DNA of 63,435 bases from Candidatus Magasanikbacteria bacterium CG11_big_fil_rev_8_21_14_0_20_39_34 (GCA_002787355.1 PCWN01000008.1:4-63438), one strand, 5' to 3'. Shown: positions 27,685 to 49,065, counted from the stretch's first letter. Program-made: numbers and translations. Notes: generated by a model not told the origin, from the sequence alone.

Positions 27685-27756
27685 GCTAGGGTAGGTACTC
27701 TAACGTATCCCTCCTCTTTCTTCATCATAGTTCCAACATCCTCTACGATCCCCTGC
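27681..27756 (-). other. attR P-arm encoding the detached C-terminal tail of the LSR
   Basis: CAG GGG ATC GTA GAG GAT GTT GGA ACT ... CCT ACC CTA GCT TAA = QGIVEDVGTMMKKEEGYVRVPTLA*, in frame with the LSR Gln codon across the GCAGG core. Confidence 0.8.
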
Positions 27757-27767
27757 TCCGTAATTCG

Positions 27768-27793
27768 TCGCTCATTTTAGCGAGGTTTTTTTT
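27768..27793 (+). terminator. Terminator just outside attR, probably the displaced tRNA-Trp terminator
   Basis: TCGCT-catttt-AGCGA followed by GG and a T-run. Confidence 0.65.
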
Positions 27794-27873
27794 ATACCCT
27801 TTGCAAAAGTTAGAACTTTTTTACAAAAAATGATACAGTTAGCTAATGAATCTAACCAATGTGAATAACTTAT

Positions 27874-29250
27874 ATGGAAAAGCTTATATCTACAAACCCT
27901 GCTAACAACTACAGTATCTTGGGAGACGTGTCAATAAGCAGTTCTGAAGAAATAAACAAAAAAGTCAAAACGGCAAATAATGCAAAACTATATTGGAAAG
28001 AGATAGGTGTACTGAAACGAATTGAATTGCTAAGACCTATTTGTGAAGAATTTAAAAAAAGATCAAATGAAATTGCATCGCTTATATGCAACGAAACGGG
28101 AAAACCAATCCAAGAATGTCAAAGTGAAGCAAATGGCTATACAGATGAATTTGATTGGTTTCTTGAAAATGCCACAAAGACACTTCAAGATGAGATTACC
28201 CATGAAGACGAAACTTCTATCCACAAGATAGTCTACGAGCCTTTTGGTTCAACTGCAGTAATAACACCCTGGAACTTTCCTTTTGGTATGGCCATCTGGG
28301 GTATTGTCCCAAACCTATTAGTCGGAAACACAGTAATATTTAAAATCTCTGAAGAATGCCCCTTAGTGGGAAAACTTATTGAAGATGTATTTAATAACCA
28401 TAATCTCCCCGAAGGGGTATTCGCTGAAATATATGGTAGTGGAGAAGTTGGAAAAGAACTTGCAGAAAGCGACATAAACTTTATTTGGTTTACAGGTAGT
28501 AGCAAGGTTGGACAAGGTTTATATAAAACGGCAGCAACTAAATTTGTAAAAGCACTCCTTGAAATGGGAGGATCAAATCCCTGTATTGTTTTTGAAGACT
28601 CTAACATATCAGAAATAGTCCCAACTATATATGACGGAAGATTTCAAAATTGTGGTCAAGTATGCGATGCCATCAAACGACTTATCGTTCATGAAAATAT
28701 CATCGACGAACTTACAACAGGGCTAAAGCGATATATTGAAACAAAAAAAGTGGGAAATCCCACACTCGAATCTACTGATATTGGAAGTCTCGTTGCACAA
28801 AGACAACTTGTACTTCTCCAAGAGCAACTCGATGATGCAATACAAAAAGGAGCACAGATAGTAACAGGTGGGAAACAGCCGGAAAACCTCCTTGGTGCAT
28901 TCTTTGAGCCAACACTTGTAACAAATGTGAACCGCGAAATGCGGATTTGGAAGGAAGAAGTCTTTGGTCCCCTCCTCCCGATCATCAGTTTTACATCGGA
29001 AGAAGAAGCAATTGAACTTGCCAACGATACACTTTATGGCCTTGGAAGCAGAGTCATTTCAAAAGATTTAGAACGTGCCCAAAGAGTTGCATCAAAAATA
29101 CAAGCAGGGACAGTAGAGATCAATAATGCAAGCCGTTGGCTTTCATGTAACCCTTTTGGTGGGTACAAAAAATCTGGCATGGGACGAGAGCACGGCACAG
29201 TAGGATTTCGAGAGCTGTGTCAGATAAAAGTAATATCCATGAGTAAATAA
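27874..29250 (+). CDS. NAD(P)-dependent aldehyde dehydrogenase
   Basis: PWNFP, FTGS, LEMGG, catalytic GQVC, EEVFGP, PFGGYKKSG. Confidence 0.95.
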   Translation: MEKLISTNPANNYSILGDVSISSSEEINKKVKTANNAKLYWKEIGVLKRIELLRPICEEFKKRSNEIASLICNETGKPIQECQSEANGYTDEFDWFLENATKTLQDEITHEDETSIHKIVYEPFGSTAVITPWNFPFGMAIWGIVPNLLVGNTVIFKISEECPLVGKLIEDVFNNHNLPEGVFAEIYGSGEVGKELAESDINFIWFTGSSKVGQGLYKTAATKFVKALLEMGGSNPCIVFEDSNISEIVPTIYDGRFQNCGQVCDAIKRLIVHENIIDELTTGLKRYIETKKVGNPTLESTDIGSLVAQRQLVLLQEQLDDAIQKGAQIVTGGKQPENLLGAFFEPTLVTNVNREMRIWKEEVFGPLLPIISFTSEEEAIELANDTLYGLGSRVISKDLERAQRVASKIQAGTVEINNASRWLSCNPFGGYKKSGMGREHGTVGFRELCQIKVISMSK

Positions 29251-29303
29251 TTTTTCATGATATGCTTGTTTTCACACATATTCTATCGTCTAAAAAAATA
29301 AAA

Positions 29304-29336
29304 AAAACATCTCATGATATTGAGATGTTTTCTTTT
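29304..29336. terminator. Bidirectional terminator between convergent genes
   Basis: AAAACATCTCA-tgatat-TGAGATGTTTT. Confidence 0.7.
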
Positions 29337-29342
29337 GCATAC

Positions 29343-46928: not shown

Positions 46929-47001
46929 GCCGTCATAGCTCAGTTGGTAGAGCGTATCCATGGTAAGGATAAGGTCCCCAGTTCAATCCTGGGTGACGGC
47001 T
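46929..47001 (+). tRNA. trnT: tRNA-Thr (anticodon GGT), CCA not encoded
   Basis: Acceptor GCCGTCA/TGACGGC, D-arm GCTCAGTTGGTAGAGC, anticodon arm TATCC-ATGGTAA-GGATA, T-arm CCCAG-TTCAATC-CTGGG. Confidence 0.95.
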
Positions 47002-47090
47002 CAATATTTTCTGTAATAAAAAATCGCTGTATTAAGCGATTTTTGTTTTTGATATTGCTTTACCCTGAACCAAGGTTTGAACTTGATGTA
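46997..47090 (+). repeat. tRNA-Thr downstream unit, copy 1 (core, terminator, eroded promoter)
   Basis: CGGCTCAATATTTT...AAAAATCGCT-gtatta-AGCGATTTTTGTTTTT...AGGTTTGAACT. Confidence 0.85.
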
Positions 47091-47136
47091 CTAATTTTTA
47101 GAATTGTATTGGCACCAACATTAGTGTCAGCATATT

Positions 47137-48801
47137 TTAGTAGTTCAATAGAGAATCCCCCGTATTGATCGTTAAAACTGTGTGAATGTCAGGATTAAAG
47201 TTTGGATCAATCGTTTTAAGTCTATTCAATATTGCAATTCCTGAAGCACCACTTGGTTCAGCATCAATATTATTTTTTTTCAATTCATTCATTGCACTAC
47301 AAATTTCTTCATCAGTAACATGATAAACAGTATATTGAGTACGATGTCTTCCTTTTTTATCAATTGGTTCATGTCGTGTTAAAGCCTGCCCTTTGACGAA
47401 TAACTCTTCTGTGTCTACCCATATTGGTCCATAGAGCATTACTGCAATAGTATTTGGGTCACCACTACTCACTGGAATAACTTTTGTTTTCAGCTTATGT
47501 TCATCTACATAATCAATCACTTCATTACACAAGATCCCTGCTCCAAAGGGCACAATAACATAGTCTGGGGAAAAACGAAGTTGTTGTTCAATGGCTTCAA
47601 TAATAATATTAACATAGGCTGGACGATTTAACCCTTCTGTAATATCTACAAATTCACCAATTACTTTTTTATGTTTTTTTGCTAAATTTTCAATGTCTTT
47701 GGATCGGTAAATTTTCTTGCTAAGATCAATGGGAACAATTTCACAGGTGTCATGTAAATGGCCTATCACTTCTTTTGCTGTTACGACGGAACTACTTGTA
47801 TCTGGACCAAAAGTTTTCTTTTCGAGTTTTGGAGGGATAAATGCCACAGCCCGTGAAACTTCATATCCAGCCATTTCATTTAGAAGCGATACATAATATC
47901 CCATTGATCTTGCTGTATTTCCATAGGAAATTGATCCAAATGTAATAGGCTTTGGAATTTTTCCTTGTCTAATTTCTTCCAACAGAGGACGAATCATTTC
48001 ATATGCGAGCCTGTCTTTGAAGGTGTGCGTTGGATTTTTACTTTCATCTTTGATCAAAAGATTTTTTATACCATAAATTGTCTCTCTTGGTACGATAATG
48101 GGAGTATTCCCAGGTTTTACGACTTTTTCAGCTTGCTGAAGTTCATAGATGAGAGCTGCATCCCAAGTAGAAAGAAAAAACTCTTGATATCTTTCACAAA
48201 TTACTCCTGATTTTGTTTGAATAGCAATTGGGTGTTTTCCCCAAACCAATGTAATAACCCTATCTTTCAAGATTATCATACCCGTGGGTACATCTTTGTC
48301 TGTAAATCTGAATTTTAGTGTCTGTAAACTCAGATTCTGGTAGGTCTTTTCAATGACATCTTTTACCGATATTGACGCAATAGAACGATCATCCACACCA
48401 CGTTTGCCAATAGAATGATGAAAATCAAATAAAAATTGTCCAAGTTCTGAATCGTAGTACTCATTTTTAAAAGCAAATGACCAATAAAAATCATTGGCCT
48501 CAAGTGAACTTTCAATTTCCTTAAACATTGTACGAAAAGAACTGTGACCACTAAAAACAGTAACGAGTTTACTTCCTGCACTATCTAATATCTCGTCCTT
48601 TCTTTTAATTGAATAATACACACCTCGTCCTTGACCATGACGATAAACTAGACCAAGACTAAGTAGCTTTTGGAGAATCTGCTTGGCGGTAGGACGCGGC
48701 AAGCTTAATCTTTTTGAAATTTCTGCTACAGTGCCATTATCCTGAGTTTCTAGCAATTTCAAGACATTCTGTTGGTTAAGGGAAAATACATGATTATGCA
48801 T
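47137..48801 (-). CDS. TrmB-like regulator fused to a fold-type II PLP enzyme (threonine/cysteine synthase-like)
   Basis: N-terminal wHTH and TrmB middle domain; PGNTPI, KDESKNPTHTFKDR (Schiff-base Lys), SYGNT, VPFGAG, AEPSGASG. Confidence 0.8.
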   Translation of the reverse strand: MHNHVFSLNQQNVLKLLETQDNGTVAEISKRLSLPRPTAKQILQKLLSLGLVYRHGQGRGVYYSIKRKDEILDSAGSKLVTVFSGHSSFRTMFKEIESSLEANDFYWSFAFKNEYYDSELGQFLFDFHHSIGKRGVDDRSIASISVKDVIEKTYQNLSLQTLKFRFTDKDVPTGMIILKDRVITLVWGKHPIAIQTKSGVICERYQEFFLSTWDAALIYELQQAEKVVKPGNTPIIVPRETIYGIKNLLIKDESKNPTHTFKDRLAYEMIRPLLEEIRQGKIPKPITFGSISYGNTARSMGYYVSLLNEMAGYEVSRAVAFIPPKLEKKTFGPDTSSSVVTAKEVIGHLHDTCEIVPIDLSKKIYRSKDIENLAKKHKKVIGEFVDITEGLNRPAYVNIIIEAIEQQLRFSPDYVIVPFGAGILCNEVIDYVDEHKLKTKVIPVSSGDPNTIAVMLYGPIWVDTEELFVKGQALTRHEPIDKKGRHRTQYTVYHVTDEEICSAMNELKKNNIDAEPSGASGIAILNRLKTIDPNFNPDIHTVLTINTGDSLLNY

Positions 48802-48833
48802 ATAAAATATCTGTTTATATACGATTATATCCA

Positions 48834-48862
48834 ATTATATACACTTATACCGATTTTGTCAA
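48834..48862 (-). promoter_or_regulatory. Consensus sigma70 promoter of the cassette 1 gene
   Basis: TTGACA, 17 bp, TATAAT on the minus strand. Confidence 0.85.
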
Positions 48863-48930
48863 GACCTTAGATGAACTTATGAACATAATGAACTTTCCAG
48901 AAGTGGTAATAAGCTACTAAATCCCCTATT

Positions 48931-49065
48931 CCCAGTTCTAACATCCTCCGTTACTCGGCTCAATATTTTTGAGAAAAAAAATCGCTGTAATAAGCGGTTT
49001 TTGTTTTTTGCATTGTTGTACCGTTTACCGAGGTTTGAACTGATTCATTATTTTGATATACTCTA
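48931..49065 (+). repeat. attR-like site 1: EDVRT-coding arm plus tRNA-Thr downstream unit, copy 2
   Basis: CCCAGTTCTAACATCCTCCGTTACT-CGGCTCAATATTTT, terminator, TTGAAC-16-TATACT with TGn. Minus strand reads SRVTEDVRT. Confidence 0.85.

Follow-up and report, generated by a model that had tools for sequence, protein, structure and literature searches.

tRNA genes and attachment-site arms

We analysed a 63,435-nucleotide stretch of the genome of Candidatus Magasanikbacteria bacterium CG11_big_fil_rev_8_21_14_0_20_39_34 (GCA_002787355.1, PCWN01000008.1:4-63438; hereafter the window, with positions counted from its first letter), a candidate-phyla-radiation (CPR) bacterium, in which two tRNA genes are associated with putative attachment (att) sites of a large serine recombinase (LSR) family. 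Both tRNA genes were called by ARAGORN. The tRNA-Trp gene borders a 14.4-kb island that carries the only LSR of the window, P0001, and the tRNA-Thr gene is followed by a two-cassette array with no LSR. The features on which the argument rests are the following:

13310–13383, plus strand: tRNA-Trp(cca); its B arm (chromosomal left half-site, 13360–13379) runs from the T-loop to the acceptor 3′ strand
13378–13379, plus strand: putative crossover dinucleotide CT in tRNA-Trp, placed from the dyad centre
13380–13383, plus strand: G73 and CCA of tRNA-Trp, now supplied by the element
13369–15024, minus strand: LSR gene P0001, 551 residues as integrated (Pfam and alignment with the SPbeta integrase)
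27681–27755, minus strand: displaced last 23 LSR codons (GIVEDVGTMMKKEEGYVRVPTLA) and stop codon, in frame with ..TRWQ when the element is circular
27730–27755, plus strand: P arm (element-side left half-site), Trp type; TTCCAA at 27731–27736 corresponds to half-site positions 23–18, and the putative crossover CT to 27753–27754
46929–47002, plus strand: tRNA-Thr(ggt), with B arm 46981–47000 and discriminator T47001
48935–48960, plus strand: P arm, Thr type; non-coding, identical at 26/26 positions to 5/6 arms of the array of a genome of the same genus (G001)

In both tRNA genes the T-loop GTTC (starting at 13360 in tRNA-Trp and 46981 in tRNA-Thr) lies 20 nt before the discriminator (G13380 and T47001), a distance that separates tRNA positions 53 and 73 and is true of any canonical tRNA. 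In the two P arms, GTTCCAACATCCTCTACGATCCCCTG (Trp type) and GTTCTAACATCCTCCGTTACTCGGCT (Thr type), GTTC lies 25 nt before the discriminator-equivalent base, which was set by the few bases identical to the end of the tRNA (CCTGC for Trp; CGGCT and the downstream repeat for Thr). An eroded third arm, ATTCTGACATATTCATCACCCGAAT (50805–50829), is 25 nt long, one base short, has ATTC instead of GTTC at 24 nt from the T73-equivalent base, and is followed by the same downstream repeat. We re-read all these coordinates, and the spacings of 20, 25 and 24 nt first reported were correct. The two att sites had also been described as independent; only the paired tRNAs are, the arms being homologous copies of one arm family.

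These arms are rare sequences. The 14-mer GTTCNAACATCCTC matches the window without mismatch only at the two arms, and the other 17 of its 19 matches with up to three mismatches all carry three, for 17.95 expected by chance. Likewise, a 19-nt degenerate arm pattern has zero-mismatch matches only at these two arms in the whole 1.18-Mb genome. A one-mismatch match at 18805, inside an open reading frame (ORF) and without GTTC, was rejected as a chance match.

The large serine recombinase and its split reading frame

Pfam identifies in P0001 a Resolvase domain (PF00239, E 1.4e-18, residues 29–165), a Recombinase domain (PF07508, residues 199–287) and a Zn_ribbon_recom domain (PF13408, residues 301–366). 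The YxRxS motif is invariant across 41 relatives, and the zinc-ribbon cysteine columns (C308, C311, C338 and C347) are invariant in an alignment. The best match in a PDB search, and by sequence the best solved relative of P0001, was the SPbeta integrase SprA/YokA (9dxh and others; E 4e-13 with 9dxh, residues 23–450); the same search returned no chain of the Listeria phage A118-type (LI) integrase at E ≤ 0.001. In the AlphaFold model of a natural full-length relative (L087), a long helical pair at 354–461 (helices 354–401 and 407–461) would match the coiled-coil insertion expected in a zinc ribbon domain. The att-spanning codons extend the last helix of this model (522–549), and residues 552–564 have a predicted local distance difference test (pLDDT) score below 50, from which no role of the tail can be read. 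A tblastn search of the window with P0001 gave only the self-match (others at E ≥ 1.3), and thus no second LSR; no second resolvase-like ORF appeared in it either, although no search was aimed at one.

The reading frame of P0001 ends in ..TRWQAR and a stop codon, antisense to the 3′ end of tRNA-Trp, and its W codon, TGG, is the antisense of CCA. Across the identity CCTGC the frame runs on into the far arm, reading ..TRWQ-GIVEDVGTMMKKEEGYVRVPTLA before a stop codon, and the circular element would therefore encode an LSR in which 23 other residues replace the final two. Since the LSR frame crosses attP, integration swaps the last 23 codons for two codons antisense to the tRNA, and the old tail is left at the far end of the Trp island. 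The arm had been proposed to be dual-coding: this holds for the Trp-type arm, which lies in the LSR frame, and fails for the Thr-type arm, which is non-coding and belongs to the cassette array. We infer that the elements are still active.

CCA is kept as the recombinase W codon in 13/13 intact attP sites (defined below). The native tRNA-Trp/X junction at locus L031 (genome G013), where X is the arm that follows the tRNA, reads ..CCTG/CTCAG, without encoded CCA, and CCA is unencoded in the tRNA-Thr genes here as well. At the tRNA-Trp of a sister genome, an LSR 82% identical to P0001 (L007, G001:C10:96380-98032) contains one in-frame TAA and is followed within about 33 kb by at least four P arms.

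The LSR family and its tRNA targets

Close LSRs, 76–82% identical, are found in metagenome-assembled genomes labelled Candidatus Nomurabacteria and Magasanikbacteria, and a relative at E ≤ 1e-10 is present in 16/41 related genomes. A tRNA gene convergent with the LSR 3′ end is found in 16/20 of the loci returned, the other four being cut by a contig end or ambiguous. In a metagenome scan, 485 of 595 candidate stretches encode a relative; 80 of the 485 were kept (57–77% identity) and, with one viral contig, gave the 81 loci analysed. A convergent tRNA was called in 45 of the 81 (Asn 16, Trp 11, Gln 7, His 3, Ser 3, Glu 2, Lys 2 and Pro 1). Over both sets of loci the targets span 13 amino-acid identities, in line with the initial suggestion that this family moves among tRNA targets, and tRNA genes are the target of a whole LSR clade. 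Viral contigs contributed only one relative, distant and 39% identical.

For more distant LSRs (25–36% identical), strict GTTC at 25 nt was found in 4/7 loci, against about one per other spacing, which is suggestive only. In twelve loci (L055, L056, L059, L068, L071, L074, L090, L093, L104, L109, L110 and L114), the LSR frame runs into ..DSNP.. or ..DSNL.. peptides of the kind that antisense T-arms of tRNAs encode, although no tRNA is called at these places by ARAGORN; the tRNA genes behind these frames may be unusual or interrupted.

Conservation of the arm as DNA

We collected intact attP sites without use of GTTC, as those loci in which the LSR frame continues past the W codon and ARAGORN calls no tRNA at any point of the locus; 13 of the 36 loci with no called tRNA qualified. 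GTTC stands exactly 25 nt before the base ahead of CCA in nine of them, with ATTC or TTTC in two more. When attR arms were sought with the inner arm and the tRNA core alone, nine matches fell on the expected strand and three on the control strand; seven of the nine carry GTTC, TTTC or ATTC at arm positions 1–4, with Trp, Pro, Gln and Lys as targets. The conservation of the spacing in homologues, one of the checks first proposed, is thus borne out: (G/A/T)TTC lies exactly 25 nt from the N73-equivalent base, with no indels, in 11/13 attP sites and in seven attR arms found independently of GTTC, for Trp, Thr, Gln, Pro, Lys and Asn. A simpler scan of the 45 loci for GTTC and a 4-nt core, with seven hits at 25 nt, zero to five at other spacings and four on the control strand, was too noisy to be used alone.

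Over the 13 intact attP sites, the counts of the consensus bases are G1 10, T2 12, T3 13, C4 11, A6 12 and A7 11. The best-conserved outer block is hence TTCNAA, which includes two third-codon positions, rather than the GTTC originally singled out; each of the 30 nt further out than the arm stays below 0.8 bit.

In intact attP sites the arm lies in the LSR frame and could simply be conserved as code for a V-(R/G)-T peptide, with no role as DNA beyond the crossover core. The tail is indeed a real peptide as well: a motif Y-(I/V)-x-(I/V)-P-(D/S/N)-L recurs at a fixed distance further along it in 14 of 31 non-redundant arms. In 11/13 intact attP loci a tail of this family directly continues the LSR. 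Against the peptide as the sole explanation, conservation is highest at third codon positions: it amounts to 2.00 and 1.65 bits at arm positions 3 and 6, and to 0.23–0.46 bits at the other six third positions, in the 31 pooled arms (18 of them found by TTC-containing patterns), and the 13 arms collected without such bias give the same picture. The residue of codon 8 changes (V, F, I, L, A or T) and its third base stays T in 29/31 arms. Codon choice also departs from that of the LSR genes themselves: codon 9, where it is Arg (22 arms), is always AGA or CGA, when NGA makes up 57% of the Arg codons in 80 LSR genes, and where it is Gly (seven arms) it is always GGA, 31% of Gly codons in those genes. 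Finally, the non-coding Thr-type arm of the window is identical over 26/26 positions to five G001 arms, at cassette joints with stop codons behind, with unrelated cassette DNA on the inner side and with conservation ending about 3 nt outside GTTC. The constrained third positions, the codon choice and the conserved non-coding arms together indicate that the block is kept as DNA, as had been anticipated for the synonymous positions. A peptide-only explanation is, from these comparisons, largely refuted and hardly credible to us, and the suggestion that the DV(R/G)T codons are kept partly for their DNA stands for the block, beside a tail that is a peptide too.

Dyad centre and register of the T-loop block

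Two-fold symmetry scored over the 13 natural attP sites is highest at arm position 24.5, which falls between tRNA positions 71 and 72: symmetric matches there number 83/169, and none of 22 other centres exceeds 58/169. Ten attP sites rebuilt from element ends (Trp, Pro, Gln and Lys) have the same centre (57/110 against at most 33/110), and individually the best centre falls there in 7/10, the window's own island included. The centre of crossover therefore lies at 71–72 and not at the discriminator, to which the spacings had first been counted. The crossover dinucleotide at positions 71–72 would be CT for Trp in the window and GA for Asn and for the Gln target of genome G035.

With the centre between 71 and 72, the T-loop block G53–C61 occupies half-site positions 19–11 and arm positions 1–9 occupy 24–16. 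In the published model of the LI integrase, the motif of the zinc ribbon domain (ZD) lies at positions 16–24 in attP and 11–19 in attB (Rutherford et al., 2013; PMC3783163). The motif positions of the tRNA site and of the P arm equal those of the LI integrase to the base. When the T-loop block was slid along the arm in ten tRNA/arm pairs, matches were 51/90 at +5 and between 6/60 and 33/90 at ten other shifts (−2 to +8). The 5-bp displacement of the T-loop motif originally proposed thus applies to left half-sites, and does not extend to right half-sites, in which a T-loop-like block is absent at both P-type and B-type positions.

The arm could, on a different account, be a decayed copy of the tRNA 3′ end, as in islands of tyrosine integrases, with an old 5-nt insertion; the reading frame would then have frozen the spacing, and the arm would have no role in recognition. 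It does start T-loop-like and end acceptor-like, and the Thr-type arm shares with its tRNA the CCAG before TTC. In the ten tRNA/arm pairs, however, the core (positions 70–73) matches in 35/40 and the inner part (62–69) in 16/80, which is chance level. The arm is thus no copy of the tRNA, having nothing in common with it beyond the crossover core and the displaced T-loop block, and inner arms are alike between different tRNAs. Indels of 3 nt would be permitted by the frame, and none is seen in the 11 motif-bearing attP sites or in intact attR and cassette arms, the sole exception in length being the eroded arm at 50805–50829, 1 nt short. Since the spacing is also kept in non-coding arms, and the register equals that of the LI integrase with a dyad found independently, we regard a decayed copy as very improbable.

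A proposed insertion site read through the T-loop

We consider it probable that the window holds two insertion sites of one CPR LSR family at tRNA 3′ ends, and that the zinc ribbon domain reads the T-loop block in a 5-bp register. The B arm is the part of the tRNA gene that begins with the T-loop and ends with the acceptor 3′ strand. In the 26-nt P arm, the innermost 4–5 nt copy the end of the target tRNA, the middle is family-specific, and the outer (G)TTCNAA corresponds to the T-loop consensus. By analogy with the Listeria integrase, the zinc ribbon domain would be the reader of this block, and its 5-bp register would distinguish the bacterial-type from the phage-type site. As the same T-loop lies at the same distance in every tRNA, a lineage could switch target by changing the inner arm only.

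Several observations weigh against this proposal. On the attB side nothing is proved by the motif alone, the T-loop being invariant for tRNA function, and the motif shared with the arm has just 5–6 nt. The T-loop reads GTCC or GTGC in three of the 45 target tRNAs, among them that of L103, at which an element is inserted. Two of the 13 intact attP sites (L088 and L098) have no TTC block and two more have A or T for G1, and the arms gathered without bias amount to 13 plus 7 only. For the Thr type, with a single rebuilt site, the best dyad centre (7/12) is at a different position. A crossover at 71–72 would moreover give palindromic dinucleotides for Thr (GC) and Pro (CG), which the polarity rules of LSRs disfavour. 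The right half of attP (P′) has no TTCNAA-like block at positions 16–24, with symmetric matches of 0/13 at positions 18, 19 and 22, whereas both half-sites of the LI integrase carry the ZD motif. This right half does have a good inner symmetric motif and a terminator-like hairpin; the X arms were unlike P′ in the inner region when compared by hand. L088 and L098, both of this LSR clade, differ from the others in their outer arm and in their tail (WLPSP..), and may be a sub-lineage with another outer motif.

The one-sidedness of the block also raises the possibility that TTCNAA is a genuine DNA signal with some other reader, such as a second recombinase subunit, a directionality factor or a host protein recognizing T-loop DNA, or that it acts in RNA. 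Its presence in left half-sites only, unlike the two-fold ZD motifs of the LI integrase, and its place at the very edge of the site would suit such a reader. On the other hand, it coincides base for base with the published ZD positions, and no T-arm-like pairing partner follows the block in the arm; we therefore think another reader improbable.

The invariant part of the tRNA occupies the place expected for zinc ribbon contact in a bacterial-type site, and on the element the motif stands 5 bp more distant from the centre. If the zinc ribbon is indeed the reader, the family would be a natural test of how serine integrases tell attP from attB. It would also explain how one enzyme family hops among tRNA targets, and would offer compact integrases with a target in every genome.

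The tRNA-Thr cassette array

Downstream of tRNA-Thr, the stretches of about 85–120 nt starting at 47002, 48961 and 50830 are copies of one X arm. The array is organized as follows:

47002–47104, plus strand: X arm 1, Thr type; terminator-like hairpin 47019–47044 and promoter-like TTGAAC-16-TAGAAT 47077–47104
47137–48834, minus strand: cassette A gene P0002, 565 residues, helix-turn-helix (HTH) and pyridoxal-phosphate enzyme domain
48961–49084, plus strand: X arm 2, behind the Thr-type P arm; terminator-like hairpin 48977–49002 and promoter-like TTGAAC-16-TATACT 49035–49062
49085–50710, both strands: cassette B, with a gene of 231 residues (49085–49780, plus) and one of 241 residues (49985–50710, minus)
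50805–50829, plus strand: eroded P arm
50830–50943, plus strand: X arm 3; terminator-like hairpin 50845–50870 and promoter-like TTGAAC-16-TATACT 50902–50929

Similar arrays exist in other genomes, Thr-type and Trp-type joints being each present in 6/107 family genomes (two queries). In G001, a Thr-type LSR element (43% identical) at tRNA-Thr is followed by six arm-plus-X joints, 0.96–1.65 kb apart, with one or two unrelated genes in each of the five units. A genome of another genus (G060) has tRNA-Thr/X and four joints, with no LSR within 35 kb, and G013, in which no LSR reaches E ≤ 1e-10, has tRNA-Trp/X and two joints separated by 0.75 kb. In these arrays the docking and cassette sites have their right arm in common, and all that separates them is the left arm, where the T-loop-like block stands in a different register; we take this as the strongest natural hint that the register matters.

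We also considered that the tRNA-Thr and tRNA-Trp loci may work as serine-recombinase 'integrons', with reversible traffic of cassettes, no directionality factor and a tail that reports the integration state of the element. The docking site would consist of tRNA arm and X arm and the cassette site of P arm and X arm, and recombination between the two would regenerate both kinds of site. One enzyme, acting in cis or supplied by another element, would insert and excise single-gene cassettes, and the tail, present on the circular form only, would tell the enzyme whether the element is integrated. We hold this view tentatively and rather doubt it.

Alternatively, the P/X joints at tRNA-Thr could be inert scars of successive full-size elements rather than boundaries of mobile cassettes. 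This genome has no Thr-type LSR, one of the arms is eroded, the arrays of G013 and G060 also have no LSR, and no joint or circle was found in contigs. The contigs in question (Logan, four groundwater runs, queried with 13000–28100) cover the integrated Trp island and both its junctions, with no island-skipping joint and no circle junction, and are uninformative either way because rare forms drop out of contigs. The units are, however, of only 0.75–2.5 kb with one or two genes, and each has a terminator-like and promoter-like X arm. Their arms are near-identical and their contents differ, and one cassette occurs in two genomes with different neighbours: the region 48933–49780 and a G001 cassette set in another context show 86% identity over 849 nt. 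Scars are to us a possible but unlikely origin of these joints.

P0002, the gene of cassette A and the only one between tRNA-Thr and the arm at 48935, was considered as a second recombinase and rejected, because Pfam gives an HTH and a pyridoxal-phosphate enzyme. It fuses an IclR/MarR-like HTH to a full pyridoxal-phosphate enzyme domain (PALP, 1.1e-20), and no homologues were found among the related loci collected at that stage. Two promoter-like sites with full consensus (TTGACA-17-TATAAT, 12/12) lie on the minus strand at 48862–48834 and 50769–50741, just inside the P arms and facing the minus-strand cassette genes.

Comparison with known systems

With the LI integrase the present family shares the resolvase, recombinase and zinc-ribbon architecture and a quasi-palindromic attP with a central dinucleotide. 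In the LI model an outer 9-bp motif is shifted by 5 bp between attP and attB (Rutherford et al., 2013; PMC3783163), as is the block of the left half-sites here. The differences are that here the attB motif is the tRNA T-loop, that it is found in left half-sites only, and that attP lies inside the integrase gene.

SPbeta has a protein-coding gene as its integration target and relies on a separate directionality factor, such as LSRs need for excision; to our knowledge, neither a tRNA target nor a split reading frame has been described for its integrase. In a search of full-text literature we found no published LSR that targets tRNA genes, and the parts of the Williams-group papers available to us contain nothing on LSRs at tRNA genes.

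Closest among published cases are the ssrA islands of Dehalococcoides, where a CcrB-like serine recombinase (DsiB) inserts tandem islands in the T-loop region of the tmRNA gene (McMurdie et al., 2011; PMC3146451). As here, an LSR gene lies beside attL, a stable RNA gene is entered at its tRNA-like 3′ end, and islands stack in tandem downstream, some without an integration module. Those islands differ in having a second small recombinase, DsiA, and the portions of that report available mention no split frame or single-gene cassettes.

Other systems share single traits with the window. In SCC/SCCmec (staphylococcal cassette chromosome), Ccr serine recombinases insert elements at the 3′ end of a conserved gene, in tandem stacks in which some units have no recombinase, much as here; there, however, the target is protein-coding, units are larger, two recombinases act together and there is no tRNA mimicry. 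Integrons also have a fixed docking site, behind which small cassettes stand in a row, each closed by a conserved recombination site (two cassettes in the window, six arms in G001, four in G060 and two in G013). The integron IntI, encoded beside attI, is a tyrosine recombinase that acts on folded single-stranded attC, and cassettes are mostly promoterless, whereas here the associated enzyme is a serine recombinase, absent from the window's tRNA-Thr array, the half-sites are of LSR type and each unit has promoter-like and terminator-like parts. An attP within an element gene, with a product altered by integration, is also known from the integration-dependent truncation of mycobacteriophages (attP inside the repressor gene) and from the split SSV1 integrase. 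Both of these involve tyrosine integrases; here the gene cut is that of a serine recombinase and only its last 23–30 codons are exchanged.

Cargo and other features of the tRNA-Trp island

The remaining features of the Trp island are the following:

13380–13413, plus strand: P′ arm (element-side right half-site), which also encodes the LSR C-terminus; terminator-like hairpin 13394–13413 behind the tRNA
15025–27680, no strand assigned: island cargo, including ORFs with no family
19423–22077: MmeI-like type IIL restriction-modification enzyme with five MmeI domains (Pfam), island cargo
22067–24001: helicase, island cargo
24007–25152: T5orf172 protein, island cargo
25640–27121: DUF2779/RNase H-like protein, island cargo
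27756–27873, plus strand: X arm, Trp type; terminator-like hairpin 27768–27783 and a TTAGAAC block

From its domain content, the cargo between 19423 and 27121 looks like a defence set. Traffic of such elements would bear on the gain and loss of defence and metabolic genes in bacteria with very small genomes, the present host being from groundwater. The Trp-type X arm is homologous to the sequence after tRNA-Trp and after every P arm in G013, G001 and G041.

A second GTTCTAAC-like block lies at 13443–13450, about 63 nt past the discriminator and within the conserved LSR codons L-E-P-N, and is kept in L007, L008, L022 and L017, relatives with different tRNA targets; it could reflect coding constraint or be an accessory site. 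An inverted GTTCTAAC at 27809–27816, likewise considered as an accessory site, falls in the promoter-like part of the X arm. Towards the end of the window, G+C content rises to 0.53 at 62001–63000, from about 0.35 elsewhere.

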